Made by a program: the position numbers and the translations under genes. Below are positions 3,641 through 44,168 of a stretch of 64,000 nt of DNA, one piece after another; position 1 is the first letter of the stretch, and the number at the start of each line of letters is the position of its first letter. Under the pieces are notes generated by a model. It was not told the DNA's origin, did no database searches, and was given only the letters and a program-made list of their open reading frames with translations. The stretch comes from Acidobacteriota bacterium (GTDB taxonomy: Bacteria > Acidobacteriota > UBA6911 > RPQK01 > JAJDTT01), in assembly GCA_965217775.1 (NCBI GenBank), contig CBDCJH010000001.1, positions 29,816 through 93,815 on the forward strand. The letters run 5' to 3'.

Positions 3641-4788
3641 ACGGTCTCCAGCGCGTCAGCCAGAGCCCGGCAAAGACGATCCAACTGCTCGGGAGTATGG
3701 TTGGCGTGAACCGAGATCCGGAGCCGTGCGGTTCCGGCCGGCACCGTGGGGGGACGAAGCGCCCTCACGTCCAAGCCCTCCTCTCGAAGCCGCTGGGCGA
3801 CGGCCAGAGCACGGCGGTTGTCCCCCAGGATGACCGGCACGATGGGACCCGCGCTGTCCAAGGTGTCCAGTCCCTGTGCTCTCAGTTGCCGGCGCAGGAG
3901 GTGGGAGAGCTCCAGGACCCGTTCCCGGCGTTCCGGGTCGCTCCGGATGATGTCCAGTGCCGCCTCCAACGCGTAGAGGAGAAGCGGCGGCGTGGAGGTC
4001 GTGAAGATGAAGCTGCGGCAAGCGTTGATCAGGTATTCGATGACGGTTCGGGGGCCGGCCACGAAGGCGCCGGCCACTCCCAGACCTTTACCGCACCCCG
4101 AGACGATGGCCGCGGCTCGTTTCTCGATTCCGAAATGCTCCGTGAGACCCGACCCTCGACCGTCGCCGAAGAGACCGGTGGCATGGGAGTCATCCACGAT
4201 CAGATCGGCTCCCCACTCCTCGGCCAAGTCGGCGTACTGGTCCAATGGGGCGATGTCTCCATCCATGCTGAAAAGGGACTCGGTGACCAGAAAGGTTCGG
4301 CCCCGCGGATGGGGAGACGAGAGAGCGGTTCGCATCGCCCCCAGATCCCGGTGTGGGTGGATGACCTTCCGCGCCCCGCTCAAGCGAATTCCGTCGATGA
4401 TGCTGGCATGGTTGAGCCGGTCCGAAACCACTCGGTCCCGGGGGCCCATGAGGGCAGAGAGGAGGCCCAGGTTGGCCTGGTAGCCGCTGGGAAAGATGAG
4501 AGCGGCCTCGGTCCCCTTGAAGCGGGCCAGCTTCTCTTCCAGGAGGCGGTGTTGCGGCGTGTTTCCCCGCAGTAGCCGGGAGGAGGGGGCAGAGACGGGA
4601 CGGGACCCGGCCTCTTCTTGCAGACGTTCGATCAGGAACGCCCTCAGCCGGGGATCGCGGGACAGATCAAGGTAGTCGTTGGAGCAGAAGTCCTCTAGCT
4701 GGGGGGACGCTTCCTCAAGGGACCGGTAGAGACCGGACGAGCGGATCCGCTCGAGGCGGTGCTCCAATTCCCGACCGAGAGTTCTCAT
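3637..4788 (-). CDS. bioF: 8-amino-7-oxononanoate synthase
   Basis: 383 aa, alpha-oxoamine synthase family (NDYLDLS, DDSHATGLFG, GCGKGLGVAGAF). First gene of the bioFDA cluster. Confidence 0.92.
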   Translation of the reverse strand: MRTLGRELEHRLERIRSSGLYRSLEEASPQLEDFCSNDYLDLSRDPRLRAFLIERLQEEAGSRPVSAPSSRLLRGNTPQHRLLEEKLARFKGTEAALIFPSGYQANLGLLSALMGPRDRVVSDRLNHASIIDGIRLSGARKVIHPHRDLGAMRTALSSPHPRGRTFLVTESLFSMDGDIAPLDQYADLAEEWGADLIVDDSHATGLFGDGRGSGLTEHFGIEKRAAAIVSGCGKGLGVAGAFVAGPRTVIEYLINACRSFIFTTSTPPLLLYALEAALDIIRSDPERRERVLELSHLLRRQLRAQGLDTLDSAGPIVPVILGDNRRALAVAQRLREEGLDVRALRPPTVPAGTARLRISVHANHTPEQLDRLCRALADALETV

Positions 4789-4915: not shown

Positions 4916-4991
4916 GGCGGCGTACCCAAGTGGCTAAGGGAGAGGTCTGCAAAACCTCCATTCACCGGTTCGAATCCGGTCGCCGCCTCCA
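4916..4991 (+). tRNA. tRNA-Cys (anticodon GCA), CCA encoded
   Basis: Hand-folded cloverleaf. Acceptor GGCGGCG/CGCCGCC, anticodon stem GAGGT/ACCTC with loop CTGCAAA, T-arm ACCGG-TTCGAAT-CCGGT, discriminator T, then CCA. Confidence 0.93.
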
Positions 4992-6816: not shown

Positions 6817-7860
6817 ATGTTGAGTTCTCGAGGTGACGGCGCTCAGACTCGCCGCGGTTTTCTTCACCGATCCGCACAGGCCCTGGGGACCGCCGCCGCC
6901 GCCCATCTCGTCGGAGCCGAGGCGCGAAGCGCGCGTATCTCTGGCCCAAACAGGAAGGACGACCGGCCCCTGAAGATCGATGCCCATGGCCACATCAGCC
7001 AAGTTGAGATTCAAGACCTGGATGGAGAGTACAGAAAGAACTGGAAGTACGGGATGTCCCACCGGGACAACCTCTACCTGATGGATGCCGTCGGCATCGA
7101 AATGCAGGTGCTCCAATGCGCCTTCTACCTGCACCGATACCACCGCCGCGTGATGAAGGAACATCCGGGCCGATTCGTCGCCATCAGCAAGATCGACGAA
7201 CGGCTGCTCCCCGGTGACCGCGGGCTGAAGCTGATCCAGCAACACATCGAGGAATGGGGGTTCAAGGGCTGGTACTACGACTGCTGGCCACCGGAGCAGA
7301 GGGTGAAAATGGGGATGGACCCCAAGGAGTGGGGCACCCCCGACCCCTTCTACCACTTCGACCATCCCCGCTACGACCCTCAATGGGAACTGGTCCAGTC
7401 ACTGGGCGTCCCCGTCTGCATCACGTCTTATTCGTACAACTTCCAGACCCTGGGACCGGCTCTTTTGAACGTGGTCAAACGGTTTCCGGATCTGAAGGTG
7501 GTCGTCATCCACGGCTATTGGCCGCCGAGCTGTCTCCAGGACGACGGCTCCGTCCGAATTCCTGAAGCGGTCGTCGAGTTGGTCAGAAACTACAACGTGG
7601 TCTTGGAGCTCCTCACCGGACTCCAGCACAGGTCCGACATGTACGGTCCCGGCGAAGTGGTGCTCAAGGTGTTCTACGAAACCTTCGGCCCGGCCAAGCT
7701 GATGTGGGGCTCCGAGTACACCCACGTCAACCTTCCGACCGTCGAGCAGTACCGGCACCAGTTCGACTACATCAAGGAGCGGTGCCCGTACATGAGCGAA
7801 AGCGACGTCGCCCAGATCCGGGGCGGCACCGCCATGGAGACGTATGGCATCCAGGCCTGA
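6817..7860 (+). CDS. amidohydrolase-family (amidohydrolase 2-like) protein with a Tat-type signal
   Basis: 347 aa with a twin-arginine motif (TRRGFLHRSAQALGTAAAA), then IDAHGHI metal-binding motif and TIM-barrel-like content. Confidence 0.7.
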   Translation: MLSSRGDGAQTRRGFLHRSAQALGTAAAAHLVGAEARSARISGPNRKDDRPLKIDAHGHISQVEIQDLDGEYRKNWKYGMSHRDNLYLMDAVGIEMQVLQCAFYLHRYHRRVMKEHPGRFVAISKIDERLLPGDRGLKLIQQHIEEWGFKGWYYDCWPPEQRVKMGMDPKEWGTPDPFYHFDHPRYDPQWELVQSLGVPVCITSYSYNFQTLGPALLNVVKRFPDLKVVVIHGYWPPSCLQDDGSVRIPEAVVELVRNYNVVLELLTGLQHRSDMYGPGEVVLKVFYETFGPAKLMWGSEYTHVNLPTVEQYRHQFDYIKERCPYMSESDVAQIRGGTAMETYGIQA

Positions 7861-7966
7861 CGCGGATTGCGGCTTTTCCTTCCTACACACGATCCGATGG
7901 TCCGATATTCGCCAAAGGCGTGCTGATCACACCGGTCCGCACCCGTCGTCACTCGATGGGCCTTGA

Positions 7967-7998
7967 TTGTAAGACTATAGTCAGTAATACTCTTACAA
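7967..7998 (+). promoter_or_regulatory. inverted repeat (candidate VapB operator) overlapping the vapB promoter and start codon
   Basis: TTGTAAGA (7967-7974) and TCTTACAA (7991-7998) are perfect reverse complements. TTGATT and TAATAC boxes lie in the same stretch. The ATG is at 7998, so the mRNA may be nearly leaderless. Confidence 0.4.
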
Positions 7999-8228
7999 TG
8001 AGAATTACCTCTAAGGGTCAGGTGACAATCCCCCAGCGACTCAGGCTGAAGTTCGGACTGCTCCCCAATACGGAGGCGGCCTTCGAAGAGTCCGACGGTG
8101 GAGTGTTGATCCGTCCCGTGTTGACCAAACGAGCGCTCATAGAGCAGCGCCTCCGCGACGCACGCGGCGTCGCGGACAGTGGGCTCGGCACCGATGACGT
8201 GATGCGGCTCACGCGCGGGGACGACTGA
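7998..8228 (+). CDS. vapB: AbrB/SpoVT-type antitoxin
   Basis: MRITSKGQVTIPQRLRLKFGL is the AbrB/MazE swapped-hairpin motif. Its stop abuts the start of the PIN gene. The internal ATG at 7998 was chosen over the longer track ORF (7704). Confidence 0.85.
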   Translation: MRITSKGQVTIPQRLRLKFGLLPNTEAAFEESDGGVLIRPVLTKRALIEQRLRDARGVADSGLGTDDVMRLTRGDD

Positions 8229-8636
8229 GTGTTTCTGGTCGACACCAACGTATTGCTCGACATCTTCTCGGACGACCCGGTCTGGCGTCCCTGGTCCGAG
8301 CGTTCAATACGTGATTCACTGGTCTCTGGAGTAGTCGGAATCAACCCGATCATCTACGCCGAGACGTCACTTTCTTTCACCGACCCCAGAGAATTGGACC
8401 ATCACCTGAATGCCTTTATGCTGGTACGTTTTCAGCTACCGTACGAGGCTGGGTTTCTCGCGGCGAGAGCCTTTCTCCGGTACCGCCGCGCCGGAGGTGT
8501 GCGGTCATCGCCGCTACCGGATTTCTACATCGGCGCGCACGCCGAGACGCAAGGACTGACACTTCTCACGAGGGACATGAGGCGATACCAGACCTACTTC
8601 CCTGCAGTGAAACTGGTGACGCCACAAACCGGGTAA
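8229..8636 (+). CDS. vapC: PIN-domain ribonuclease toxin
   Basis: 135 aa with a GTG start immediately after the vapB stop. N-terminal FLVDTNVLLD (PIN acidic residue), later IYAE and TRD motifs. Confidence 0.85.
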   Translation: MFLVDTNVLLDIFSDDPVWRPWSERSIRDSLVSGVVGINPIIYAETSLSFTDPRELDHHLNAFMLVRFQLPYEAGFLAARAFLRYRRAGGVRSSPLPDFYIGAHAETQGLTLLTRDMRRYQTYFPAVKLVTPQTG

Positions 8637-8735
8637 AAGCTACATGGGTAGCGAGGTTCCGTGGAGAACGAGTCCCGCCGTCTCCGGATGGAAACGGTAG
8701 AGTCTCCCCGGTTGCAGATGCCGGGAGCGAATTCC

Positions 8736-11591
8736 CTACCGGAACAGCACGACCACTTCTTCCAGGATCGGCGATACGACTCCGGTGGGAGCGGGATGAA
8801 GAGTCGCACGGTATTGAATCACCGAGTGCGACGGATCCGTATACGGGATTTCGGCGGGATGCTCGAAGAATGTCGCCGGACCGCCGGGTCCCCGCCACAC
8901 GGCTCCGTCCAATTCTGCTTCCGACTCGGCCGTCCTGATCTGGAAACGCACTCGGCTGCCCAGGGGAGTCTGGGCTTTCCAGGTCAGGGTCGCCGGACGG
9001 CCCTTCGTGAACGAGTGGACCGAAGAGACGTAGTCGAACTCGAATCGGCGGTCGTAGATGTTGCCCAGGTCCACTCCAGAATCTCCATGGGGACCGCGGA
9101 CCGGGATCTCCAGCCGGCGGTCCGCCCGGAATCCGTCGACGCCTCCCCAGTAGAGAAAGGAGTTGGTGACGTGATCGCCGAAGGAGCCGATCCGGTTGGC
9201 GTCCCCCTCGGAACGGTGGCAGACGAAGAGAATGTCGGCGTATCCGTCCTGGTTGAAGTCTGCCACCATGCTTCCGGCCCCGGAGTTGGTGGGCAGCTTG
9301 AACATCCGATTCGGGTCGAACCCGTCAGGTCCGCCCAGATGCACCCGTGAGAGAGTCGCCCGGCTCGATCCGGTGTTGTAATTGGGGCACACCAGGTCCA
9401 GCCATCCGTCCTGGTTCACGTCCGCCACCGTGACCAGGTTGGTCCCCTCGATCTCGAATACGGTGCGCCGGCCGGCCGAGTATTCTCCCTCTCCCGCACC
9501 CCAATAGACGAACCCCGTGGTCAACCGGGAGCCCCCCTCGATGCCACGGCTCAAGACCAGATCGAGCACTCCGTCCCGATTCAGGTCGGCGACCTCCACG
9601 CCCCGGAGGCCGGACGACCCGGGAACGATGCCACGGCGCGACGAGGAGTAACCACGGCTTCCGTCGCCCCAATAGATGGGGACACCCTCCGGATTGGCCG
9701 AGAAAACGAGGTCCAGGTGTCCGTCCCGGTTGAGATCGGCAATGGCGGGGATGCCCGTCGGTCCGTTGTCCAACTCCAGCCGCTCGGTGACCACGAACCC
9801 TTCGCCGCCACCCCAGTAGACGAACGCTCCCGTCTCCGCCAACTCCTGACTGGGGACGTTGGACAGGACCACGTCCAGCCATCCGTCCCGGTCCAGATCG
9901 GCAATGCTCACGCCGGCGCTGCCGCGTCCCATCAGGGCGGACCGGTTGTCGACCTGGAACCCCTCTCGATCACCCCAGTAGACGTGGCTCTCCTGCCGCC
10001 ACCGAACCGTCTCTCCAAAGTTGGAGACCACCAGATCGGTCCAGCCGTCGTCGTCCAGGTCCGCCGATCCCCATTCATAAGGGTCCACGGCGGGCAACGA
10101 GATTCGCCGTTCGGCGCTGTACTGGCCCTGGGCGTCTCCCCAGTAGACGAAAATGGGACTGTCTCCACCCCGGCTGCGCGACACCGTGTTGTTGAAGAGG
10201 ATGTCCGGATGGCCGTCGCCGTCGAAGTCGGTCACCAGGTTTCCCACCGCGCCCTGGGTGAAGAGGGAGGTGCGCCGGGTGGGAGCGAATCCCTCTTCGG
10301 AGTTCCATTGGATATAGGAGGGGACCTCGAAAGAGAAGTGCTCCTTGTAATTGGAGATAACCAGGTCCACGTGCCCGTCCCGATTCAGATCGGCCGCCGA
10401 GACACCCCAGGCCCCCACCGTCTCGAATTCCTGGCGCCGCTCATTGGAGAAGCCTTCCGCAGAGCCCCAGTACAGAAAGGAGTGGGTGAGAGGGTTGCCG
10501 TGGGACTGATGATTGGTGAAGAAGATGTCCTGGTGGCCGTCGCCGTTGAAATCGGCGACGGCGGTGTCGCGGGCATTACTGGTGGAAAGCTCCAGCCGTC
10601 TCTCGGCCGAGAAGCCTTCCTCACTGTTGAGATAGACGAAAGAAGCCGGGCCCTTCCCGTTGGCGATCACGAGATCCGTGCGGCCGTCGCCATTCACGTC
10701 GGCCGCCTCCACGGCGAAGGCCTGATGGGTCGGAAGATCCACCTTGCGCTGGGGACTGAAACCCTCCTCACCGCCCCACAGAACATAGGAATCGATGTCC
10801 TGGTTCCCCTTGTCTTCCTGGTTGGCCAGGATGAGATCGGGCCATCCATCCCGGTTCAAATCAGCGACGGCCGCGTCCGAGGCCCCCAACGCCGGGACGT
10901 CCACGTAGCGCTCCCGGTCGGGACCTTGGGCGGAACCCCAGAAGACTCGGGACGGCGAATCGTAACCCCCTCCCCGGAAACCGACACGGTACTCCCAGAA
11001 TCCGGCGGACAGAGCCAGAACTACGTCGGGGTGCCCGTCACGGTTCAGATCAGCCACGGTGGCTCCCTGGGCCGCCCGCGAAGGAAGGGTGATCTTCCTG
11101 GAAAAGGGGTGGAATCCCCACGCCGAATCGTCCCGGCGGTTCTTCAACTCCTCGATCCCACCAAAATAGATGAACGAGTCCATGCCGTCCCAGGTGCCGT
11201 TGGTGTAGTTGGGGAAGACCACGTCCATCCGGCCGTCCCCGTTCAGATCGCCGGCCGCCGCCCATTGGGCGCCATCGTTGGGGATGAAGGAACGGCGGGA
11301 GACGTCGAAGTCCCTGCCGTTTCCCCAATAGATGGCCGCGTCCATCTTCTCCTTGTGGGGATGGGTGTTGGAAAAGACCAGGTCGATGAACCCATCCTGA
11401 TTGAGGTCCCATCGATTCACCAATTGGATGCGGCCCCGTCTGGAAACGTAGGTGTTGGCACCGCCGTCGCCAAACCTGCCGTCAACGAAATCCTCGAAGC
11501 TGGATTCCTTCCAGACCTTCGTCTCCGTCTGGCCCCAGGCCGCAACGGCGCAAGGCAGAAAAAGCAAGGTCAGCCCCAGATTCCAGCGCAT
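8736..11591 (-). CDS. secreted FG-GAP/VCBS-repeat protein
   Basis: 951 aa with a signal peptide (LTLLFLPCAVAAWGQ). More than 10 repeats of the ADLNRDGxxDLV / ADFNGDGHxD type. Confidence 0.85.
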   Translation of the reverse strand: MRWNLGLTLLFLPCAVAAWGQTETKVWKESSFEDFVDGRFGDGGANTYVSRRGRIQLVNRWDLNQDGFIDLVFSNTHPHKEKMDAAIYWGNGRDFDVSRRSFIPNDGAQWAAAGDLNGDGRMDVVFPNYTNGTWDGMDSFIYFGGIEELKNRRDDSAWGFHPFSRKITLPSRAAQGATVADLNRDGHPDVVLALSAGFWEYRVGFRGGGYDSPSRVFWGSAQGPDRERYVDVPALGASDAAVADLNRDGWPDLILANQEDKGNQDIDSYVLWGGEEGFSPQRKVDLPTHQAFAVEAADVNGDGRTDLVIANGKGPASFVYLNSEEGFSAERRLELSTSNARDTAVADFNGDGHQDIFFTNHQSHGNPLTHSFLYWGSAEGFSNERRQEFETVGAWGVSAADLNRDGHVDLVISNYKEHFSFEVPSYIQWNSEEGFAPTRRTSLFTQGAVGNLVTDFDGDGHPDILFNNTVSRSRGGDSPIFVYWGDAQGQYSAERRISLPAVDPYEWGSADLDDDGWTDLVVSNFGETVRWRQESHVYWGDREGFQVDNRSALMGRGSAGVSIADLDRDGWLDVVLSNVPSQELAETGAFVYWGGGEGFVVTERLELDNGPTGIPAIADLNRDGHLDLVFSANPEGVPIYWGDGSRGYSSSRRGIVPGSSGLRGVEVADLNRDGVLDLVLSRGIEGGSRLTTGFVYWGAGEGEYSAGRRTVFEIEGTNLVTVADVNQDGWLDLVCPNYNTGSSRATLSRVHLGGPDGFDPNRMFKLPTNSGAGSMVADFNQDGYADILFVCHRSEGDANRIGSFGDHVTNSFLYWGGVDGFRADRRLEIPVRGPHGDSGVDLGNIYDRRFEFDYVSSVHSFTKGRPATLTWKAQTPLGSRVRFQIRTAESEAELDGAVWRGPGGPATFFEHPAEIPYTDPSHSVIQYRATLHPAPTGVVSPILEEVVVLFR

Positions 11592-29293: not shown

Positions 29294-30811
29294 ATGCAGG
29301 TCCTTTCCAAACCGGTACCGGCGAGTCCGATGGGGGCAGTGATTCTCCTGCTGTTGACGCTGGCGAACCTTACGGCAGCGCCGATCAAGGGCGTCGGCGA
29401 GCTCCCCGCGCAGGGCGAGATCCCGTCTCCGCCGGTGCCGGGACAGCCGGCGCGGGCGGATCTGGATCGAGCCATCACCCGGGGCACCCGATCCTTCATC
29501 CGGGACTTCGTCGAGCCCTCCTACGCCGCCATCTCCAACGGCGGCTACGTCGACTACAAGAACGCCGACGGCGCCGTCAAACGCTACGGACCCAAGGCCT
29601 ACGTGGCCTACCAGCTCTACCTGCTGACCCATTTCCTCATGTACTATCAGGACTTCGGCGTCGATCCGCAGAGCGAGCTCTTCCGGAAGGTCAGAACTTG
29701 GTTCGTGGAGGAATTCGATCGCCGGACCGGGAACTGGCTCTGGTCCCACGAGGGCTGCCTCCACGCCAAGGGAATGATCGCTCTGGCCAATCTGGGCCGT
29801 TCCTCCCTGGTGCGGAAGGGGTACGAATGGGCGCTCAGGTCGCCGCTCTCCCTGCCCTATCTGCCCCCCAGTTCCCTGCCGGTCGCCGACCGGGTCTTCA
29901 CCATCATGCAATCGGGCAACATCATCCAGACCCTGGGCAACGCCCGGAGTTCGCTCACCGGAAAGCACGGCTGGGAGCACGGCAGTCCGGTTCCCGACCT
30001 GGAGAACAGCGCCAAGCTCCTCTATGCCCTCTTGCAGGCCGGGTTCCCGTCCACGGACGCTCGCCTGACCGACCTCCGCCGGGGACTGGCGAACCGGCTT
30101 CTGGCCCTGGGTCCCCGCCTGATCGCAGCGGACTACGTGGGACTGGCCTGGTACGTCTTCCTGACCCACGACTTCGACCTGGAACCCGACCTGGCCTACC
30201 AGCGGTGTCTTCAGATTATGGAGGCGACCATCGACGGTGAATGGAAGTCGCATTTCGCCCTGATGGAATTTCCGGGCTTCCGCAGCCTCCTGGTGCGGGC
30301 GCTCATGACCGCCGGCAGGAGATCGCCTCAGGTGGATGCCGCCGTGAACGGGTACGTCGCGTCGCAAAGTGAAACTGGGGCCTGGCCGCTACCCCGCGCC
30401 CTCAGTCTATGGGGACTGGACAAGCCGCCGGTCGCCGGGATCAAACTGGGCACCATGGACGGCGCCAACACCTACCTGTTGACGCTGACGCTGATCCACT
30501 ACCGGGACAGGATCTCCAGTGACAACTCCGCGTTCGCCGTCCCGTCCCTTTCCCTGAAACACCGTCTCGCGCCGGCCGCCGTACGAGACGACTCTCCAGG
30601 AGCGAAGGCGGTGGAGCGGGCCTGTACCGGTTGCCATGCCCGGCCTCACCCCGATGCCTATGGCCGCGAGGATTGGCCGGGCGTCACCCGGAAAATGGAA
30701 GAGTACATGTTCGAGAAGGGGATGAACGTCGCTCCCCGGGATCTCACCCTGGTTCTCGACTACCTGATGGAGAAAGCTTCGTCCCGGTCGGGGACCAACG
30801 AGCCAAGGTGA
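29294..30811 (+). CDS. secreted hypothetical protein with a C-terminal c-type haem-binding motif
   Basis: Internal ATG at 29294 gives a signal peptide (MGAVILLLLTLANLTAAP). CxxCH motif ACTGCHARPHP near the C-terminus. The N-terminal ~400 aa were not recognised. Confidence 0.55.
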   Translation: MQVLSKPVPASPMGAVILLLLTLANLTAAPIKGVGELPAQGEIPSPPVPGQPARADLDRAITRGTRSFIRDFVEPSYAAISNGGYVDYKNADGAVKRYGPKAYVAYQLYLLTHFLMYYQDFGVDPQSELFRKVRTWFVEEFDRRTGNWLWSHEGCLHAKGMIALANLGRSSLVRKGYEWALRSPLSLPYLPPSSLPVADRVFTIMQSGNIIQTLGNARSSLTGKHGWEHGSPVPDLENSAKLLYALLQAGFPSTDARLTDLRRGLANRLLALGPRLIAADYVGLAWYVFLTHDFDLEPDLAYQRCLQIMEATIDGEWKSHFALMEFPGFRSLLVRALMTAGRRSPQVDAAVNGYVASQSETGAWPLPRALSLWGLDKPPVAGIKLGTMDGANTYLLTLTLIHYRDRISSDNSAFAVPSLSLKHRLAPAAVRDDSPGAKAVERACTGCHARPHPDAYGREDWPGVTRKMEEYMFEKGMNVAPRDLTLVLDYLMEKASSRSGTNEPR

Positions 30812-30952
30812 AGCGACATCAGTAGCCTGCGCCCTGCTACAGTTTCGAAGCCGGATAATCTGAGATTCCACCGACGCACCGCAGACGGACCGCTTTGGGC
30901 AGCGCCCCTCCCCCACTGCTGCGGGGCAAGAGGGGCGCCGTCCCGGTCTTCA

Positions 30953-32224
30953 TCATGACCGTCCCTGGACGCTCGTGGGCGCGCCCGGTCTCCCCGTAGG
31001 GACTCCGGCTCCGGCTTGCGAGCGTACGGGCCACCCGGAACGCGATTTTGTTGTTCCGGTTCGCGGTGGTGTTCCTGTTGCGGTTCGCGGAGCGCAGGTT
31101 CCTAGGGTTGTTGTTCCAGGAGCCGCCGCGCAAAACGCGCCGGGGGGACGGTCAGGCCTCCGGACGGGGCCGAAACGCACCGCCCGGAAGATCGCTTGGC
31201 GCAAGCGCCAGGTGTTCGCATGCTCGGCATGCGCGATCCAGGCGCGCACGTGCCGAGTCATCTGTTCCAGGTCCACCGTGCCCGCGTGCCAGCGGTCGCG
31301 CAGCCCCCGCAGGCGATTGCGGAACCGGCGCACGTTCGCTTCCGGCAATCGGCGGTAACCGCCCGGAAGTAGGACCAGGCCCAGGAACGGAGTCGGTTGA
31401 GCAGTTTCCAGCACCACCGTCTTGCGTGGGTGCAGCCGCAGGCGCCGGCCCTTGAGATACGTCGCGATTCGATTCCGCCAGTCCTCGAGCCGCCCGCGGT
31501 CGTCGTGAAACAGCGCGAAGTCGTCCACGTACCTGAGATATCCCTTCGCCCGCAGCACTTCCTTGCAGAAGTGGTCGAGACCGTTCAGATAGAGATTGGC
31601 GAAGAACTGGCTCGTCAGGTTGCCGATGGGCAAACCTCGCCGGCGTTCGAACGGGGTGAAGAGATTGTCGCCGGGATAGTAGAGGTTCACCGGTTCCTGC
31701 GGGTTGGACCCCTCGATGAGGCGTTCCGCTAACGCCAGGGTGCGCCGGCAGGCGATCCGCCGCCGCAGGTCCGCCTTGAGGATCTCGTGGTCGATGGCCG
31801 GGAAGTAGCGGTAGACGTCACAACGCAGCACCCAACGGTGCCGGTCGCGAAATCGTTCGTAGCGCGCGATGGCCCGGTGGGTTCCCTTGCCCTTCCGGTT
31901 GGCGTAGCTGTCGTGGATGAAGCCGCGTTCGAAGATGGGTTCCACCACGCGGCAGAAGGCATGGTGGACGACCCGGTCCCGAAAGGGCGCCGCCGAGACC
32001 ATGCGGCGTTTGGGGTCCCGGATCTCGATCACGGTGTAGCGTCCGGGACGGTAGCGCCCGCTCCTCAGTTCCCGCTCCAGGCGCAGAACCTGAGGCTCCA
32101 GATTGGCCAGGAACGACGCCACGCCCGGCTTGGCCCGTTTGCCCTTACAGGCGATCCGGGCCGCCTCCAGCAGGGCCGAAAACGAGGCGATCCGGTCAAA
32201 GAGGTCACGCGCTTTCGCGGGCAT
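30953..32224 (-). CDS. DGR-type reverse transcriptase; the annotated ORF reads through TR1
   Basis: 423-aa ORF with RT motifs, including the DGR-typical LPIGNLTSQFFANLYLNGLD and catalytic RYVDDFALF. After about residue 350 the ORF is just the open frame across TR1. Confidence 0.9.
   Translation of the reverse strand: MPAKARDLFDRIASFSALLEAARIACKGKRAKPGVASFLANLEPQVLRLERELRSGRYRPGRYTVIEIRDPKRRMVSAAPFRDRVVHHAFCRVVEPIFERGFIHDSYANRKGKGTHRAIARYERFRDRHRWVLRCDVYRYFPAIDHEILKADLRRRIACRRTLALAERLIEGSNPQEPVNLYYPGDNLFTPFERRRGLPIGNLTSQFFANLYLNGLDHFCKEVLRAKGYLRYVDDFALFHDDRGRLEDWRNRIATYLKGRRLRLHPRKTVVLETAQPTPFLGLVLLPGGYRRLPEANVRRFRNRLRGLRDRWHAGTVDLEQMTRHVRAWIAHAEHANTWRLRQAIFRAVRFGPVRRPDRPPGAFCAAAPGTTTLGTCAPRTATGTPPRTGTTKSRSGWPVRSQAGAGVPTGRPGAPTSVQGRS
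31032..31143 (-). other. DGR template repeat TR1
   Basis: Adenine/AAC-rich on the minus strand. In the VR frame it reads RGGSWNNNPRNLRSANRNRNTTANRNNKIAFRVAR. Aligns to VR 32696-32823 with mismatches mostly at TR adenines. Confidence 0.85.
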
Positions 32225-32600
32225 GATGCGCTTTCCGCCAGCCGCCGACCAGACGGCCGGTCTCGTCGAGTTGTCGGGCCGCGTGTTCGTAACGGCGCGG
32301 GTCCAGGTAACGCAGCTCGCGGGCCAGACGGCATAGGCACCGGAGCTTCTCCAGACCCAGGTTGGCGGCGGCCAGGGCGGGACCGCGGTGCCGGGTGTAG
32401 GTCGCCTCGATCAGCCGCTCCAGAACGTCCAGAGCCGAGGTCTGGATCCGGTCCCCCAGCAGAAACTTCTGCCGGCGCGGAAAGCGCTCCACCGTCGGGA
32501 TCAACCAGGCGAGGAATCGATAGTGCGACTCCAATGCGGGGCCAGTTTCACGCGAACGGTCGCCACTCCGGACACGCCGCCGCTGGGATTCATTCCTCAA
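32205..32600 (-). CDS. avd: DGR accessory variability determinant (Avd, four-helix-bundle family)
   Basis: 131 aa with a TTG start; a later TTG is also possible. YRFLAWLIPTVERFPRRQKFLLGDRI...LRCLCRLARELRYL...GRLVGGWRK matches the Avd pattern. Overlaps the RT start by 20 nt. Confidence 0.8.
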   Translation of the reverse strand: MRNESQRRRVRSGDRSRETGPALESHYRFLAWLIPTVERFPRRQKFLLGDRIQTSALDVLERLIEATYTRHRGPALAAANLGLEKLRCLCRLARELRYLDPRRYEHAARQLDETGRLVGGWRKAHHARESA

Positions 32601-32618
32601 ATTTGCCGATCAACCTCA

Positions 32619-32645
32619 AGAAAAAACCAGGGCGTTGCCCCCTGG
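32619..32645 (-). terminator. stem-loop plus T6 downstream of VR (intrinsic terminator and/or DGR target-recognition hairpin)
   Basis: The minus strand reads CCAGGG-GGCAACG-CCCTGG followed by TTTTTT. It lies about 50 nt 3' of VR and just upstream of avd. Confidence 0.55.
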
Positions 32646-32695
32646 CCCCCCGCAGGAGATAAAGATTTAAGGATTCAAGGGGTAACGGTCCGGGG

Positions 32696-32823
32696 CACCC
32701 GGAACGCGATTCCGAGGTCACCGAATTCACATGAGCCGGTTCGCGGAGGCGGACCCGCTGCGGTACGCGGAGCGCAGGAGCCCGGGGAAATTGCTCCGGG
32801 AGCCGCCGCGCAAAACGCGCCGG
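32696..32823 (-). other. DGR variable repeat (VR) at the 3' end of the target gene
   Basis: Collinear with TR1. By hand count about 18 of 22 substitutions are at TR adenines. VR carries a 16-nt insertion relative to TR1, and a TGA sits where TR1 has AAA. Confidence 0.8.
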
Positions 32824-33944
32824 GAACATTTCCCGCTCTCCCACGCCGAGCCGTTTGTCGGCGCTCCTTGGTAATTCTCGTTCCAACAATCCTGCACCCA
32901 CTCATACACGTTCCCGTGCATGTCGTGCAGGCCCCAGCCGTTGGGACCGAACGATCCCACCGGCGCCGTCTGTGCCTTGTCCCACTTACTCCCGCAGCCA
33001 ACACAGTTGGCCCGGTTGCGACCGATCCCGTTCCCCCAACTGTAGACCGTCTCCGTCCCCGCCCGAGACGCACCCCATCCGGAAGCTCCCCCCGGGGATC
33101 ACCACCATCTCCGGCCGAATCGGGTCCGCCTGGCTGCAGTCGTAAGTGCTGCTGCGGTCATAGGTGACCGACCTCTCGTTTTCTCCTCCCGGATCAAGGG
33201 TCCAAGTCCCGTCCCGTTTGTCCTCCACATACGACCCTTGTTCTACGATCTGCCCGTCATCGTTGCGCCTCACCCAGCGGCCGTGTTTCTTGCCTTCGAC
33301 GTAGGAGATTTCCCATGTGTCGCCGTCCGCGTCTCGGCCGGTCAGTTGGCCGTGTCTTTTGCCGTCTACGTACGGCCTTTTCTCTATGGATCCGTCTGGC
33401 CACCGAGCAGTCCAAAGGCCCTGCATATTGCCTTCCACGAAGGGTCCTTCTGTCTTGTTCCCGGACAGGTCACCGTCTGCTCCGGCAAGAGATATTCGTC
33501 CCACACGTGGCATCCCGGCTGGTTGGCCAGTTCCTTCCAACATTCGGAACCCTTCGCTTTGCCTGAGCAGGTCTGGACGGCATTGAACGTGTCCGCTTCG
33601 GCGGCGTTCAACAATTCCAGGGCTTCGATGTAGTGGTCCCCGTCGCGTCCAGCCATCTCCAAATAGCGCGTCACCATCTGGACCGCCCGGGCGGGACGGC
33701 CCGTCCGCTACGCCACTTGGGCACTTCGAAAATAGAATTCTTCCGGAAGCTTTAGACCCTGTTCCGTCTCTAACGTACTCATCTTGTCGAGCGCGGTTTG
33801 AGCACCAGCGAAGTCTTGCCGCTCGATCGCTTGCCGCGCGGAAAGTAGGTAGCGGTCCGCTTGGATCTCGGGTGGCAGCTGGGCGACCGTCGCGGGAGCG
33901 CCCAAGAATACGAAAACGACAACGCTCCGGATTCTTTTTTCCAT
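32727..33944 (-). pseudogene. DGR target: signal peptide + YwqK/MORN-like repeats + FGE-sulfatase (C-type lectin fold) domain; apparently disrupted
   Basis: The coding signal is split over track ORFs 33708-33944, 33384-33677, 32986-34017 (the latter's 3' half) and 32727-32960. There is an in-frame TAG at 33710-33708, a frame change near 33478, and a frame change plus missing domain core near 33055. Confidence 0.7.
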
Positions 33945-36262: not shown

Positions 36263-36501
36263 GAACCAGAGAGAAGGGGACAGTCACGTTTTCTGCATGC
36301 GATTCGCCAGGACCGAAAAGGGGACAGTCACATTCTCTGCTGTCGCTACTGGGGAGCTCCAGACTCGACTTCCACCGAGCCGCTCTTCGCCTGGAGACCC
36401 AAGAGGAGGATCGAAGCCCTATTGGCCGTTTCGACCTTGACCGAAGAGGAGAAGGAGACAGTCTATTTGTCGCGCGCCGTTGTCCTTGGTACGGTAGCGT
36501 A

Positions 36502-36945
36502 TCAGGTTAGTCCAGACGTAAACGATTGGGTGACCAGGCCCTTGGCCGCGTCTATCCCACCCTCCTTGATCAGGCGAGCAAGAATCTTTCCAAAAGTCTC
36601 GTCGGGTTGCTGGACGCCATCGGGAATGGAGTTGAGTAGCTTCAGCGCCTTCTCGGTCAACATGCAGCCGTTGACCTGTAGTCCTCCACGCTGGAGAGCC
36701 CGAACGTACTCATTCTCTACGAGCCAATCGATCGTCGAAAAGGCGATCCGCATCTGCTTCTGCTTCTCCTCGTCCACATCCTCTGAGTCGTCCTTGCGAG
36801 AGTAAAAGATGTCACCGTATCCTTTGGGGCGAGTGTCACCGCTGATTTCCCACGCCATAAGATCTTGTCTGACCGGAAAGTTCTCATAGAGGCGGCCCAA
36901 AATGATGGCGACGTATTCGTTGAACAGGTCGATGTTCTGCGTCAT
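36502..36945 (-). CDS. hypothetical protein
   Basis: 147-aa ORF with plausible composition (MTQNIDLFNEYVAIILGRLYENFP...). No family recognised. Lies between two motif copies. Confidence 0.5.
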   Translation of the reverse strand: MTQNIDLFNEYVAIILGRLYENFPVRQDLMAWEISGDTRPKGYGDIFYSRKDDSEDVDEEKQKQMRIAFSTIDWLVENEYVRALQRGGLQVNGCMLTEKALKLLNSIPDGVQQPDETFGKILARLIKEGGIDAAKGLVTQSFTSGLT

Positions 36946-37038
36946 GCGTCCTCCCCGTAATGGCTGAGTTGGAGCCGAAACTCCACTTTACGAGGTGTTC
37001 CCACTCGGAGAGAAGGGGACAGTCACGTTTTCTGCATG

Positions 37039-37275
37039 CGCGGCGAGGGCCAAGGCAGTGGCGCCCTCACCGTTCTGGGCGTCGATCCGGGCCCTGCGGT
37101 CCAGCAGCAATTCCGCGACTTCAGCATGACCGTTCGAGGCGGCTTGCATCAGGGGGGTCCGACCATCGTCGTCCCGAACATCCGGGTCCGCCCCCCGGTC
37201 CAGCAGCAGCTTGGCGATCTCCGGGAATCCCTGATACGCCGCGAAGGCGAGAGCCGTCTGGCCTCCCGCGCCTCG
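37039..37275 (-). pseudogene. ankyrin-repeat gene fragment, paralogous to 38767-39003
   Basis: 237 nt, collinear and about 90% identical by hand count to an internal part of the 627-aa ankyrin gene. Encodes GGQTALAFAAYQGFPEIAKLLLDRGADPDVRDDDGRTPLMQAASNGHAEVAELLLDR. Bounded on both sides by motif copies. Confidence 0.85.
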
Positions 37276-37541
37276 GGTTCCCACGGGACGCGAGAAGGGG
37301 ACAGTCTATTTTTCCCGCCCTCGGTTCCAACTGCGCCCACCACTGGACCCTTGCCTGCCAGGTCGATTATCTGGTCACGGACCCTCTACGCGAGAGGGGA
37401 CCAGATTAGGGACCGCTTGGAGAGGTTGGCGAGGGTGCCTTTCTTGACGTGGCTCTTAGGGCGGTAGGACTTGCTCAGGAGGGGCCGGAGAGAAGGGGGC
37501 AGTCACGTTTTCCGCCCCTCGTTCGATGTCAGGAGGATGGC

Positions 37542-37558
37542 GGGGGGGGGGGGGGGGG
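37542..37558 (+). repeat. homopolymeric G17 tract
   Basis: 17 consecutive G read directly from the sequence. Intergenic within the mosaic region. Confidence 0.9.
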
Positions 37559-37568
37559 CGCAGACCGG

Positions 37569-37790
37569 CTACTCCTGCTCCTGGAGCAATCTGGCCAGCG
37601 CAAGAAGGGGACAATCTATTTTTCCCATGATGACGTGTGAAACGTACCGTCTTCCCGCCAATACGCCAGCCCATGCGCCGACGGCCGCAGAGCCTATGGC
37701 GAGAAGGGCCTCATTCTCTTTCTCGTAGAATGCCAACAGCACGGAACCCAGCACAGATAGAACAATGGCCGTGCCCAGCGATATTGCCAC
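37569..37790 (-). CDS. small two-TM hypothetical ORF whose 3' end runs into a motif copy and an ankyrin 3'-end fragment
   Basis: 73 aa with a GTG start. MAISLGTAIVLSVLGSVLLAFY...LLAIGSAAVGAWAGVLAG. The last ~20 codons are encoded by motif copy 37602-37626 plus the LLQEQE-stop fragment. Confidence 0.35.
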   Translation of the reverse strand: MAISLGTAIVLSVLGSVLLAFYEKENEALLAIGSAAVGAWAGVLAGRRYVSHVIMGKIDCPLLALARLLQEQE

Positions 37791-37888
37791 GACTCGATAA
37801 AAGAACTGGTACGATTCATAGGTGGGGGGTGGAACCTATCGCAATTGCAGAATTCCCACTATCGCCCCAATCCTGGGGAGCGGGGGTT

Positions 37889-38110
37889 TCAGCCACCTCT
37901 CAGCCCCATAATGACAAGACGCTCCATCGAACCGTCCTTCTTGCGTCTGTACAATTCTCCACCGTCTTCGACCAACCTGGTCAGATCGTCCATCACCGAC
38001 AATGCGCTACTCACAGTTGATGCTTTGCTTCGCGAGTCCAATTTTTGCGTCAGCCTGTTGGTGATTTCGATATCGCGCTCGGTCAGATTCATGGTGACTT
38101 TTCGTAACAC
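37889..38110 (-). CDS. small ribbon-helix-helix-like hypothetical protein
   Basis: 73 aa. GTG start with AGGAGG 5 nt upstream. VTMNLTERDIEITNRLTQKLDSRSKASTVSSALSV fits a beta-alpha-alpha RHH pattern by eye. TTGACT-18 nt-TATATT lies upstream. Confidence 0.45.
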   Translation of the reverse strand: MLRKVTMNLTERDIEITNRLTQKLDSRSKASTVSSALSVMDDLTRLVEDGGELYRRKKDGSMERLVIMGLRGG

Positions 38111-38381
38111 GTGTGCCTCCTATGTGGTTGCAGATTCCAACCATGCTTCGTTCTGGATGCGCATTGTGCCGCCAAGTCGAGGGACGTCGAGAGGCCAACC
38201 CTGGATCCATCCACCTTTTCAGTCGATGCCAAAGCCCATTCAGCAGCATCTTCAACACTTAACGAGTACTAGAACACATACAGACAATGTATGGCGAATA
38301 TACAGATAAAGTATGGTCATAGTCAAGGTCAAGGGGGGTCGGAACAGGGGACAGTTCCCTTTTCACGAGGTGTGGGTCCGT

Positions 38382-38531
38382 TTTTGTTGTTCCGGTTCCC
38401 GGTGGTGTTCCTGTTGCGGTTCGCGGAGCGCAGGTTCCTGGGGTTGTTGTTCCAGGAGCCGCCGCGAAAAACGCGCTGGGGGGACGGTCAGGCCTCTGGA
38501 CGGGGCCGAAGTGCACCTCCCGGAAGATCGC
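38382..38531 (-). other. orphan second copy of the RT 3' end plus template repeat (TR2)
   Basis: About 150 nt collinear with 31046-31196 at roughly 93-95% identity. Encodes ...IFREVHFGPVQRPDRPP in the RT frame and RGGSWNNNPRNLRSANRNRNTTGNRNNK in the VR frame. There is no RT body upstream. Flanked by motif copies. Confidence 0.8.
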
Positions 38532-38619
38532 CTCGAGGGGACAGTCACGTTTTCCGCAGAGAGAAGGGAACCGCGCAGAGAGAAGGGAACCGGATTCGCG
38601 CGTGCGGCCCAGACGGCTT

Positions 38620-40503
38620 CTACTCCTGTTCCTGGAGTAATCTCGCCGTGACCTTTCGACCTTCGGCCTGAGCCAGCATGAGGGGATTGCTTCCCTGGTG
38701 GTTCCGGATACGCACGTCAGCGCCGCGGCTCAGCAACAGCCGGGCCAGGTCCGTCTGACCTCGGGACGCGGCGAGGGCCAAGGCAGTGGCGCCCTCTCCG
38801 TCCTGGGCATCGATCCGGGCCCCCCGGTCCAGTAGCAGTTCCGCCACTTCAGCATGACCGTTCCAGGCGGCTTGCATCAGTGGGGTCCGGCCGGAATCGT
38901 CTTGGACATCCGGGTCCGCCCCCCGGTCCAGCAGCAGCTTGGCGATCTCCGGAAATCCCTGATACGCCGCGAAGGTGAGGGCCGTCTGGCCCCCCGCGCC
39001 TCGCGCTCCGACACGAGCGCCGCGTTGCAACAGTTTCCGCACCGACTCGATTCGCCCCCTGTAGGCCGCCATGCCCAGAAAAGACTGGCCGCGGGGGGCG
39101 AGCGAATTCACGTCCACACCCGCCGCCAACAGGGCGTCGACGATGGGACCGCGGTCCTGGCTCAGCGCCAGCCCCAGGGCCGTCCAGCCCTCGTTGCTGC
39201 GAGAGTCGAGCCGGGCGCCGCCGTCGATGAGCCGCCGCGCCACTTCGGCGTGACCATGGAGGGCGGCGTAGATGAGCGGCGTCCTCCCCTCCCGGTCCGG
39301 CCGGTCCGGATCGGTCCCCCGGGCCAGCAGGACCTTGACCGTCGCCTCGTTTCCTTCCAACGCGGCGTGCACCAGAAGGGTTCGACCCGCCTCGTCGGGG
39401 GTATCGACCCGTTCCCCGGCCGGGAGCAGCGCTTCGATGACCTTCGTGTGGTCGTACCAGACGGCCAGGTCCAGAGCCGTCTGGCCCCGATTGGACTTGA
39501 TCTGCGGATCCGCGCCCGCCGCCAGAAGCGCCTTGACCGCATCCGCCTTCCCCTGGGAGGCGGCCTGCGTGAGAGGTGTCCGGCCTTGACTGTCGCGGCT
39601 GTCCACCACGGCCCCCGCCCGGATCAGAGCCTCGACGATGGGTGCAAAGCCATTGTAGGCCGCCGCCGCCAGTGGTCCGTTGCCCTCCTTGTCCCGAAAG
39701 CCGGTGGCGGCGCCGTGGGCCAGCAGGAATCGGGCCGCTTCGGTCTTCCCTCCCGACGCCGCATGCATCAGGAGCGGGATGCCGTTGACGTCCACCTCAT
39801 CGACGTCGGCTCCGTAGCGCACCAGGAGAGCAGCCGTTCGTCCGTGGCCCTCGAACAGGGCCAAGGCGAGAGCCGTCCAGTTGTCGCGGCTCCGAGTCCC
39901 GACCTTGGATCCTCCTTCGAGCAGAGCCTCGACCACAGGCAGGTCGCCCTGGGACGATGCCCGCATCAGGACGGTCCAGCCCGTCTTGTCTCGCGCGTCG
40001 GGTCCGGCCCCGGCCGCCAACAGTGTCCGGACCACCGCCACGCTCCCTCCCAGTACTCCCCAGACCAAGGGCGTATGTCCGCTGGCGTCGGTGGAGCGTA
40101 TGTCCGCTCCCACCTCCAGCAAGGCGCCAACGACAGCCACATGTCCGGATCCGGAACCGATCATCAGGGCGGTGGCGCCGTCCCGGGTTCTGGCTTCCAG
40201 TTCCGACCCCCGGGACAGGAGCAGGCGGACGGTCTGTTCATTCCCGCCCATGGCGGCGTACATGAGAGGATTCAATCCGTCCGGATCCCGAACCAACACG
40301 CTGGCGCCCCGGTCCAACAAGGCCGCGACCTGATCGGTGCGGCCCTCCACGGCGGCCCCGATCAGGGCCGCATTGAGCTCCTGATCCTGACCGGCGGCGG
40401 AGACGTTGGACGACAGAAGACCCAGAACCAACCACCGGGCGAGGAAGTCCCGGCCCCGCGGTTTCGGCCTTGGCCGCACTTGATATCCGGTGGCTCGGAA
40501 CAT
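38620..40503 (-). CDS. large secreted ankyrin-repeat protein
   Basis: 627 aa with an N-terminal signal/anchor (WLVLGLLSSNVSAAG), followed by about 18 ANK repeats. Confidence 0.9.
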   Translation of the reverse strand: MFRATGYQVRPRPKPRGRDFLARWLVLGLLSSNVSAAGQDQELNAALIGAAVEGRTDQVAALLDRGASVLVRDPDGLNPLMYAAMGGNEQTVRLLLSRGSELEARTRDGATALMIGSGSGHVAVVGALLEVGADIRSTDASGHTPLVWGVLGGSVAVVRTLLAAGAGPDARDKTGWTVLMRASSQGDLPVVEALLEGGSKVGTRSRDNWTALALALFEGHGRTAALLVRYGADVDEVDVNGIPLLMHAASGGKTEAARFLLAHGAATGFRDKEGNGPLAAAAYNGFAPIVEALIRAGAVVDSRDSQGRTPLTQAASQGKADAVKALLAAGADPQIKSNRGQTALDLAVWYDHTKVIEALLPAGERVDTPDEAGRTLLVHAALEGNEATVKVLLARGTDPDRPDREGRTPLIYAALHGHAEVARRLIDGGARLDSRSNEGWTALGLALSQDRGPIVDALLAAGVDVNSLAPRGQSFLGMAAYRGRIESVRKLLQRGARVGARGAGGQTALTFAAYQGFPEIAKLLLDRGADPDVQDDSGRTPLMQAAWNGHAEVAELLLDRGARIDAQDGEGATALALAASRGQTDLARLLLSRGADVRIRNHQGSNPLMLAQAEGRKVTARLLQEQE

Positions 40504-44090: not shown

Positions 44091-44168
44091 TGGCGGGACC
44101 GACGAGATTCGAACTCGCGACCTCCGGCGTGACAGGCCGGCGTTCTAACCAAGCTGAACTACGGCCCC
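44091..44168 (-). tRNA. tRNA-Asp (anticodon GUC), CCA encoded
   Basis: The reverse complement folds as a cloverleaf. Acceptor GGGGCCG/CGGTCCC, anticodon stem CCGGC/GCCGG with loop CTGTCAC, T-arm GCGAG-TTCGAAT-CTCGT, discriminator G, then CCA. Confidence 0.93.

Follow-up and report, generated by a model that had tools for sequence, protein, structure and literature searches.

Among diversity-generating retroelements (DGRs), the order target-avd-RT-TR, with the template repeat (TR) behind the reverse transcriptase (RT) gene, has been published as architecture B2 (avd-RT-TR) by Wu et al. 2018 (PMC5758913), and DGRs in which TR overlaps the 3′ end of the RT open reading frame form group 3 of the 2012 DiGReF classification (PMC3521204). 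Handa et al. described an Avd-binding stem-loop of about 9 bp with a UNCG tetraloop just downstream of TR and, by prediction, assigned such RNA elements to 207 of 278 Avd-type DGRs; in BPP-1, cDNA priming takes place 56 nt past the end of TR and uses a 7-bp pairing between TR and the spacer (PMC6182149; bioRxiv 10.1101/2023.10.23.563531).

We analyzed a locus on the minus strand of a 64-kb stretch of DNA (hereafter the window). The locus is a DGR: the nearest solved relative of its RT is bRT, its Avd exceeds the cutoff of an equivalog model, the differences between TR and the variable repeat (VR) are adenine-specific, and RNA elements of DGR type surround TR. A preliminary description had already read the locus as a DGR, and all elements that it listed were found on the minus strand, but the target is a remnant and not an intact gene (Table 1). 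Its statement that the flanks carry no phage genes also held, since ten flanking ORFs match cellular Pfam families, with no phage hallmark among them. The best explanation is, with good probability, that this is a chromosomal DGR of the published avd-RT-TR type whose neighboring target gene has decayed.

Table 1 Features of the DGR locus (window coordinates)
Feature	Position	Strand	Details
Terminal long hairpin	30901..30941	(-)	Past RT stop; helices 5 and 6, 15 pairs, all with compensatory changes
Near-invariant motif CCAGGGACGGUCAUGAUGA	30950..30968	(-)	Downstream duplex arm 30965-30956, then UGAUGA = RT ORF stop (30955-30953)
RT ORF	30953..32224	(-)	423 aa; RVT_1 1e-17 (Pfam); IGNLTSQ and YVDD in translation
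Structured RNA domain directly 3′ of TR	30967..31027	(-)	Helix P1 = 31027-31020 with 30974-30967
TR	31024..31144	(-)	121 nt, 29 adenines; target-frame translation ..RVLRGGSWNNNPRNLRSANRNRNTTANRNNKIAFRVAR
Upstream duplex arm UGACCGUCCC	31145..31154	(-)	Pairs with 30965-30956; 10-bp long-range duplex bracketing TR
avd accessory gene	32205..32600	(-)	Open frame from TTG 32600
Hairpin CCAGGG-(7 nt)-CCCTGG, then T6	32621..32645	(-)	Hairpin 32645-32627, T6 32626-32621; between target and avd
DGR target remnant	32675..33944	(-)	At least four reading-frame pieces (three-frame translation)
VR	32688..32824	(-)	TR alignment: 18 A-to-N, 3 internal non-A, 2 3′-end differences
VR insertion CTCATGTGAATTCGGT	32720..32735	(-)	16 nt; frameshift and TGA 32729-32727 ending lectin-domain ORF
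Orphan truncated copy	38379..38531	(-)	RT 3′ end, upstream duplex arm and most of TR

As the preliminary description had it, the RT contains IGNLTSQ and YVDD, which correspond to the DGR-RT pattern [LIV]GxxxSQ plus YxDD, and its frame remains open across TR. The best PDB match was 8ub7_A, a bRT-type chain from an entry that also includes an Avd chain (E = 2.5e-39, versus 8.7e-18 for the best group II RT). NCBIfam has no DGR RT model, and its best named match was a group II RT (129 bits; cutoff 300), with weak retron and DRT matches; on this basis one could assign the RT to a different class (group II intron, retron or defence RT) and treat TR and VR as an unrelated duplication of the 3′ end of a lectin domain. 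However, all these matches lie far below their cutoffs, bRT leads the solved relatives by 70 bits, the Avd equivalog overlaps the RT start, the adenine-specific mismatches recur across dozens of relatives, and neither intron RNA nor any other Rfam family was detected, which makes such a reading barely credible. PADLOC returned a generic RT model and weak DRT matches only, a result that is uninformative as to class. The Avd assignment was likewise borne out by Pfam (PF22296 bAvd, 1.1e-18) and by the NCBIfam equivalog NF033474 DivGenRetAVD (109.6 bits; cutoff 80). The protein is 94% identical to the Avd of an orthologous locus, L081, and gave only weak matches in the PDB, to 4dwl (Bbp7) and the Avd chain of 8ub7. 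Its start codon is uncertain: the GTG start of the L081 orthologue reads GTC in the window.

TR starts right after the RT core. A direct repeat of 89 nt (82%; 31056-31144 and 32736-32824), whose 22-nt core has a chance expectation of 0, extends to the complete TR and VR. The adenine-rich TR that had been proposed is present, but its homology with VR covers 121 nt instead of 112 nt. Mismatches fall on 18 of 29 adenines versus 5 of 92 other sites (Fisher p = 5e-10), and the 3′ ends differ at two positions only (31031 and 31026). Exceptions to the adenine rule in VR comprise three internal non-A changes and the 16-nt insertion; the non-A difference at 31104 is a mutation of TR, as the orphan copy and the TR of L081 have the VR base. 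The 64-kb window contains no further VR copy.

VR lies within the sequence coding for the C-terminal C-type-lectin fold of the target, in line with the preliminary description: Pfam FGE-sulfatase was detected (5e-20) in ORF 32960-32727, and the match includes VR. The domain is truncated, with only profile positions 169-239 of 255 present, in one 77-aa ORF, and is preceded by a signal peptide, an N-terminal region and MORN-like 23-aa repeats. An intact gene, which had been implied, was not recovered. An in-frame TAG (33710-33708) interrupts a stretch homologous to residues 214-308 of L081 T3, and there are at least two frameshifts, the signal peptide being in a different frame from the MORN and PEMVVIPGG segments. 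L081 T2 aligns in two blocks, residues 72-94 at 33132-33064 and, in a different frame, residues 183-298 at 33071-32724; the 88 residues between the blocks are missing. In addition, the conserved tryptophan of GGSW is changed to arginine. Neither TR nor the orphan TR copy nor any of the three VRs of L081 contains the insertion seen in VR, and a search of the window for its source gave chance 8-9-mers only. Without it, VR would read ..GIAFRVPRTVTP, and relatives end in ..GFRVARTLTP; among 22 relatives checked, 17 show a long reading frame with this ending 8-10 nt after VR, and the window has none. The premature TAG, the frameshifts, the loss of 88 residues and the insertion in VR leave no expressible ORF, and the adjacent target reads as a pseudogene, a status that the preliminary description had missed.

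We considered that the DGR might be fully functional and its target intact, the frameshifts, deletion and VR insertion being assembly or consensus artifacts in a hypervariable stretch rich in repeats. Populations are polymorphic in VR regions, which can yield chimeric assemblies, the low-coverage contig of L081 has a 7-nt deletion in one VR, and VR frames are disrupted in a minority of relatives, some of which could be assembly artifacts. By contrast, the lesions in the window are of differing kinds and lie mostly outside VR (the TAG, the loss of 88 residues, the frame change before the MORN repeats and the GGSW substitution), other truncated gene fragments occur in the surrounding 36.9-38.6 kb region, and avd, RT and the neighboring genes are full length, with 92-97% identity to L081. 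The full-length alignment of the flanking genes to that locus argues against generally poor sequence quality. These observations render an artifact unlikely and favor real decay of the target; in the best explanation, the frameshifting insertion has not been followed by any rewriting of VR.

The preliminary inventory of repeats was incomplete, in that it did not describe a third, truncated copy of TR. This orphan copy is 94% identical to 31043-31195 and keeps all adenines, but it breaks off ~20 nt before the end of TR and contains none of the 3′ RNA element; copies of a dispersed repeat, GAAAACGTGACTGTCCCC, flank it. VR has ATCGCG as in TR, whereas the VRs of L081 have ATCGGG, and these TR-specific bases place homing after the split from the L081 lineage. 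The indirect evidence of VR on activity is two-sided: non-A changes and an indel have accumulated, yet derived TR bases are shared, and activity may have lasted until a recent time. Judged from sequence, both the enzymes and the template RNA look intact, and the DGR core may be idle or may serve targets beyond the window.

The hairpin and T6 of the preliminary description were located between target and avd, ~40 nt downstream of VR. In DGRs, an IMH at the 3′ end of VR can be followed by a DNA hairpin or cruciform, and we considered the hairpin for this role. It is present, but the folding of its region is not distinguishable from that of shuffles (z = 0.42), and together with T6 it looks like a terminator.

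The conserved feature around TR is RNA, namely, a bracketing duplex, a UNCG stem-loop and a terminal hairpin, all with strong covariation and all with counterparts among the DGR RNA elements of BPP-1. Over 66 loci, 97.4% of cells in the bracketing duplex were paired with 86 double-sided changes, as opposed to 28-50% and 6-21, respectively, when the register was slid. In the 3′ RNA domain, helix P1 encloses a stem-loop (31008-30985) capped by c(UACG)g, which is of the UNCG type and matches the Avd-binding stem-loop described by Handa et al. RNAalifold on 65 loci revealed compensatory changes in 31 of 34 pairs; 94.3% of cells were paired versus 42-52% in slid registers, with a covariation score of 0.53 versus 0.11-0.14. 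Nucleotide conservation extends ~50 nt beyond the RT stop codon, and all helices are intact in the window except for a 2x2 internal loop in the stem-loop. Rfam returned two tRNAs elsewhere and nothing at the TR-flanking RNA when the whole window was searched at the gathering threshold, and no family for this RNA in 30600-32800 at E ≤ 1. By analogy with BPP-1, putative roles of the helices are Avd binding, priming and the stop of cDNA synthesis.

RT core homology stops at about residue 355 (near 31160), and the template RNA element supplies residues ~357-423. The possibility that this C-terminal extension is under selection as a working portion of the enzyme, with TR truly dual-coding, was assessed among 76 distinct relatives. 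TR is in the window's phase of the RT frame in 46, where the ORFs have similar lengths (415-429 aa, including RT homologues of 415-424 aa) and ..SVQGRS recurs at the tail end, as a selected extension would predict. However, TR is in the target phase in 6 relatives and in the third phase in 4, and the RT frame ends at or before the TR start in ~19; relatives with 60-78% RT identity are among those that use the other two phases or end just before TR. With three phases in use across TR, and some frames ending ahead of it, the open frame is not conserved as a protein feature. Conserved RNA (duplex arm plus UCAUGAUGA) accounts for both the recurring peptide and the position of the stop, since the RT frame first meets a stop at the UGA of UCAUGAUGA, which adjoins the downstream duplex arm. 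This motif is equally conserved in relatives where it is not the stop, and CCAGGGACGGUCAUGAUGA is kept in relatives whose RT ends before TR (L049 and L050). Residue changes before TR (PDRPP, PDPPP and PDHPP) follow compensatory base-pair changes in the duplex, and bRT, which has 328 aa and aligns with residues 4-341 of the window RT only, has no counterpart of the tail. We therefore regard a dual-coding TR as very unlikely, and the best explanation includes a 65-residue tail that appears to be incidental and not a conserved protein. The RT ORF runs through TR only because the RT core is directly followed by the template RNA, a G+C-rich sequence that is stop-free in that phase, and the passage is probably a by-product of tight packing and not a new mechanism. 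The ~1850-nt tblastn matches at some loci, considered as insertions in the RT gene, were rejected as such because they reflect an upstream VR that matches the TR-encoded tail.

It is likewise very improbable that translation and templating are coupled in this lineage. If they were, the ribosome finishing RT would in most members cross the upstream duplex arm, TR and the Avd-binding stem-loop and terminate at the UGA directly beside the downstream duplex arm. RT synthesis would then briefly unfold the template RNA and free the new RT on its own template, with cis-preference, or switching between translation and reverse transcription, as the outcome, and the near-invariant UCAUGAUGA would double as an RNA element and a stop signal.

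In a scheme drawn by analogy with BPP-1, a single transcript would carry avd, RT and the template RNA, and RT and Avd would bind the 3′ stem-loop. Priming of the cDNA would occur in cis, from the strand paired with the 3′ end of TR in helix P1, ~50 nt downstream of TR; TR would be copied with misincorporation opposite adenines up to a stop at the bracketing duplex, and the cDNA would then replace VR. For annotation, the 423-aa "RT" corresponds to a core of ~355 aa plus template RNA, the template RNA is a noncoding DGR RNA reaching ~50 nt beyond the stop codon, and the adjacent target is to be labeled a pseudogene. DGR RNA elements had earlier been defined structurally in one phage element and elsewhere predicted by single-sequence folding; the modest gain here is covariation support for them in a large avd-RT-TR lineage across many bacterial phyla. 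The locus itself opens no new question.

The layout, which the preliminary description had put forward as the point of interest, is not new. By its coordinates, the element fits both B2 (PMC5758913) and DiGReF group 3 (PMC3521204), and ~75 related loci from many phyla have the same avd-RT-TR order with adenine-biased VR copies. It shares with B2 the core order, a same-strand target located upstream, and a VR of the CLec type; there is no difference in layout, and what the window has in addition is the decay of its target and the orphan fragment of TR. The DiGReF study classified the overlap and did not ask about selection, and the relatives of the window element show that the phase is unconserved. 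In BPP-1, the order is mtd-avd-TR-brt, whereas TR and the 3′ RNA of the window follow the RT gene instead of lying between avd and brt. Unlike BPP-1, the window element is chromosomal without phage context, its RT ORF runs through TR and the 3′ RNA, its target is a pseudogene of the FGE-sulfatase type and not Mtd, and the functions of its RNA are those suggested by BPP-1. Common to both are Avd, a bRT-like RT, adenine-specific differences between TR and VR, and a VR at the C-terminus of a target with a C-type-lectin fold. Both also have a long-range duplex bracketing TR, a stem-loop with a tetraloop cap close to the 3′ side of TR, and a TR 3′ end that pairs with a strand ~50 nt downstream, the site of priming in BPP-1 (Sp 56). 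The covariation across the avd-RT-TR lineage supports a mechanism of priming and stop that would be conserved on whichever side of the RT gene TR is located.

Judged from its sequence, the minus-strand element is a chromosomal diversity-generating retroelement (DGR), because its repeats differ chiefly at adenines, its Avd matches DGR families, its reverse transcriptase (RT) is nearest to a solved DGR RT and it sits among cellular genes. A direct repeat of 89 nt with 82% identity (31056-31144 and 32736-32824) extends, with one gap allowed, to a template repeat (TR, 31144-31024) and a variable repeat (VR, 32824-32688); its 22-nt core occurs three times, against none expected by chance. The VR differs at 18 of the 29 TR adenines and at 5 of the 92 other positions (Fisher p = 5e-10). 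The Avd ORF matched Pfam bAvd (1e-18) and scored 109.6 bits (cutoff, 80) with the NCBIfam DGR-Avd equivalog, and the RT ORF starts 20 nt before the end of the Avd stop. A non-DGR RT can practically be dismissed, given this Avd score and a nearest solved structure, chain 8ub7_A (a 328-aa RT with Avd in the same entry; E = 2.5e-39), far ahead of the best group II intron RT (8.7e-18). The ten flanking ORFs are all ordinary cellular genes (including Nramp, MoxR AAA, BatA/BatD, aminotransferase, MFS, M28 peptidase, and ankyrin genes). The preliminary description, which proposed a DGR with an Avd ORF, an RT carrying both motifs and flanks free of phage genes, is borne out on these points; the RT motifs, the adenine-biased TR/VR pair, a VR in a lectin-fold coding sequence, Avd and the template RNA elements all mark the element as a DGR, and what it lacks is an intact target. 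The avd start of the orthologous locus L081, GTG, is GTC in the window (32571-32573); the window gene may have to start at TTG 32600 (GAGG 13 nt upstream) or an internal TTG, or may be poorly translated. The sole Rfam matches in the window are two tRNA genes, 4916-4988 (+) and 44094-44168 (-), neither adjoining the DGR.

Features of the DGR and its template RNA, in window coordinates
Feature	Position	Strand	Remark
Target gene, broken into reading-frame pieces	33944-32675	minus	First in order
Hairpin and T6	32645-32621	minus	Between target pieces and Avd ORF
Avd ORF	32600-32205	minus	Pfam bAvd, NCBIfam DGR-Avd
RT ORF, 423 aa	32224-30953	minus	RVT_1, IGNLTSQ, YVDD
Bracketing duplex, upstream arm UGACCGUCCC	31154-31145	minus	Abuts TR 5' end
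Helix P1	31027-31020 with 30974-30967	minus	Begins exactly at end of TR-VR homology
9-bp-class stem-loop, cap c(UACG)g	31008-30985	minus	Consensus structure, 65 loci
Single-stranded, near-invariant CCAGGGACGGUCAUGAUGA	30968-30950	minus	65-locus alignment
Bracketing duplex, downstream arm GGGACGGUCA	30965-30956	minus	Reverse complement of UGACCGUCCC
Long terminal hairpin	30941-30901	minus	Consensus structure, 65 loci

The target gene had been described as having an FGE-sulfatase/lectin C-terminus that ends in the VR; a remnant of that domain and the VR are present, but the gene is, on the following lesions, a pseudogene. Three-frame translation of the region showed no one frame spanning the whole gene. 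The intact FGE-sulfatase targets of L081, whose downstream genes share 92-97% amino acid identity with those of the window (RT, 92%; Avd, 94%), served as a ruler. An in-frame TAG (33710-33708) lies within the stretch homologous to the L081 target T3, and the MORN-repeat/PEMVVIPGGSFRMG part is in a different frame from the signal-peptide/N-terminal part. Residues 72-94 of target T2 are fused straight to residues 183-298 in a different frame, with loss of 88 lectin-domain residues, so that Pfam covers only profile positions 169-239 of 255. Within the VR, a 16-nt insertion (32735-32720) supplies a TGA that cuts off the ..GIAFRVPRTVTP end, and Arg replaces the conserved GGSW tryptophan; in 17 of 22 relatives checked, the VR terminates an open frame of 293-1215 aa ending ..GFRVARTLTP. 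An assembly artefact is unlikely, being hard to reconcile with how varied the lesions are and where they lie; because the neighbouring genes are full length, the damage is confined to this locus and, being heterogeneous as well, argues against general sequence error. The VR of this pseudogene carries TR-specific bases (ATCGCG) absent from the L081 VRs, which points to rewriting from the window TR after the split from the L081 lineage and not since the 16-nt insertion arose. No further VR copies were found in the 64-kb window. Upstream of the lectin domain, the remnant contains three 69-nt (23-aa) MORN-like repeats (..GKRHG../..GKKHG../..DKRDG..; 33274-33443, minus strand). In L081, one of the three VRs (target T1, 1296-1470) has a 7-nt frameshifting deletion, and an IS with a DDE_Tnp_1 transposase (7552-8733) separates the last target from avd; cassette decay is thus not unique to the window.

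The preliminary description set the TR embedded in the RT reading frame against the classical BPP-1 layout, but the arrangement is not special: it is published, common to about 75 loci and read in no conserved phase. RT homologues number in the thousands; identity is 71-92% for the best 120, most of which have 415-424 aa. We took 80 related loci from MAGs labelled Acidobacteriota, Gamma- and Alphaproteobacteria, Binatia, Dehalococcoidia, Spirochaetia, Latescibacterota, and others; about 75 share a VR, an Avd-sized gap, the RT, and a TR that begins around nt 1080 of the RT gene, and the differences in their VR copies fall almost exclusively on adenines. The conserved RT core extends to ..WIAHAEHANTWRLRQAIFRGGWFDP (about residue 355), and the frames of 76 distinct relatives were compared past this point: 46 read the TR in the window's phase (..PGAFCAAAPGTT..), 6 in the target phase (..RVLRGGSWNN..), and 4 in the third phase (..LEQQ..), and about 19 terminate at the first TR base or immediately upstream of it. 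These differences, together with an alignment to the BPP-1 RT limited to residues 4-341, indicate that the tail is not a conserved protein; a functional, dual-coding tail, which the phase data contradict, is highly improbable. MAGs carrying the lineage (RT 60-85% identical, with layout and RNA scaffold in common) bear the labels of at least eight phyla or classes, which implies wide horizontal transfer. Some genomes hold two or three copies (L015/L016, L024/L025, L034/L037/L038), and several genus names, the sole basis here, suggest sponge or marine hosts.

Conservation at the nucleotide level begins some 20 nt upstream of the TR and continues through it to about 50 nt beyond the RT stop codon. 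A 65-locus alignment gave a consensus RNA structure of 34 pairs, 31 with compensatory changes; standard pairing was found in 94.3% of cells, against 42-52% when the register was slid by 1-3 columns, with covariation scores of 0.53 and 0.11-0.14, respectively, and none of 500 shuffles attained the observed values. The 10-bp bracketing duplex was paired in 97.4% of cells across 66 loci (slid registers, 28-50%), with 86 double-sided changes (slid registers, 6-21); its covariation accounts for the apparent amino acid variation PDRPP/PDPPP/PDHPP before the TR. The RT stop is a UGA after the downstream arm, and since it lies in a conserved RNA motif, ORF lengths look conserved; CCAGGGACGGUCAUGAUGA is equally conserved where the relatives' RT stops before the TR. 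An extra variable-length hairpin (alignment columns 137-168) lies between the downstream arm and the terminal hairpin in a subset of the relatives: L004, L036, L041, L043, L051, L053, and L057-L060. In the related locus L012, the TR and whole 3' RNA element are duplicated (4247-4613 and 7085-7451; 367 nt, 97% identical); the second copy is located 2.8 kb upstream of the RT and may serve as an additional functional template.

In the Bordetella phage BPP-1, the template needs flanking RNA on its upstream and downstream sides (Handa et al., PMC6182149; bioRxiv 10.1101/2023.10.23.563531); cDNA is cis-primed at spacer position 56 through 7-bp pairing with the TR 3' end, and Avd binds a stem-loop of about 9 bp just downstream of the TR, with a tetraloop cap that is often UNCG in Pseudomonadota (Handa et al.). 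The window's RNA elements correspond to these, and by analogy the element would work alike. P1, whose 3' strand lies 50-57 nt after the TR, would be the template:primer pairing, the UACG stem-loop would bind Avd, and the bracketing duplex would be a stop element. All RNA elements are intact in the window, and with an intact RT and Avd the DGR core looks competent; the dead part, as far as the sequence tells, is the local target only. It is quite unlikely that translation is coupled to templating, with ribosomes unfolding the template RNA and terminating at the duplex arm to give cis-preference.

A third TR copy (38531-38379; 94% identity to 31195-31043) comprises most of the TR together with its immediate upstream sequence and the last 12 or so RT-core codons. 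Because it keeps every adenine and includes RT-core codons, it is a DNA-level copy of the TR rather than a VR. Neither the TR 3' end nor any of the sequence beyond it is present, and the copy is most plausibly a dead fragment. Its base at the position of T 31104 shows that this T is a recent mutation in the TR, which explains one non-A TR/VR mismatch. The copy is flanked on both sides by GAAAACGTGACTGTCCCC, an 18-nt partly palindromic dispersed repeat with 13 matches (0.22 expected), 12 at 36271-38554 and one at 10149-10166. The cluster has the DGR target on one side and the ankyrin gene on the other; truncated gene fragments adjoin its copies, which look as though they marked recombination or deletion junctions. 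A 98-aa ORF (36988-37284, minus strand) ends in this repeat and reproduces, at 90% identity, a fragment of the adjacent 627-aa ankyrin-repeat gene (38620-40503, minus strand), namely residues 498-579.

The layout is that of architecture B2, defined by Wu et al. as avd-RT-TR (2018; PMC5758913), and of group 3 of the 2012 survey (DiGReF; PMC3521204), in which the TR overlaps the end of the RT ORF. That survey named the genus Ca. Accumulibacter, two loci of which (L053 and L063) belong to the window's RT lineage. The window DGR is an unannotated member of this known type, to which our analysis adds two small points: BPP-1-type RNA elements gain support from covariation in an avd-RT-TR lineage, and one case of a decayed target accompanied by an orphan TR fragment is documented.
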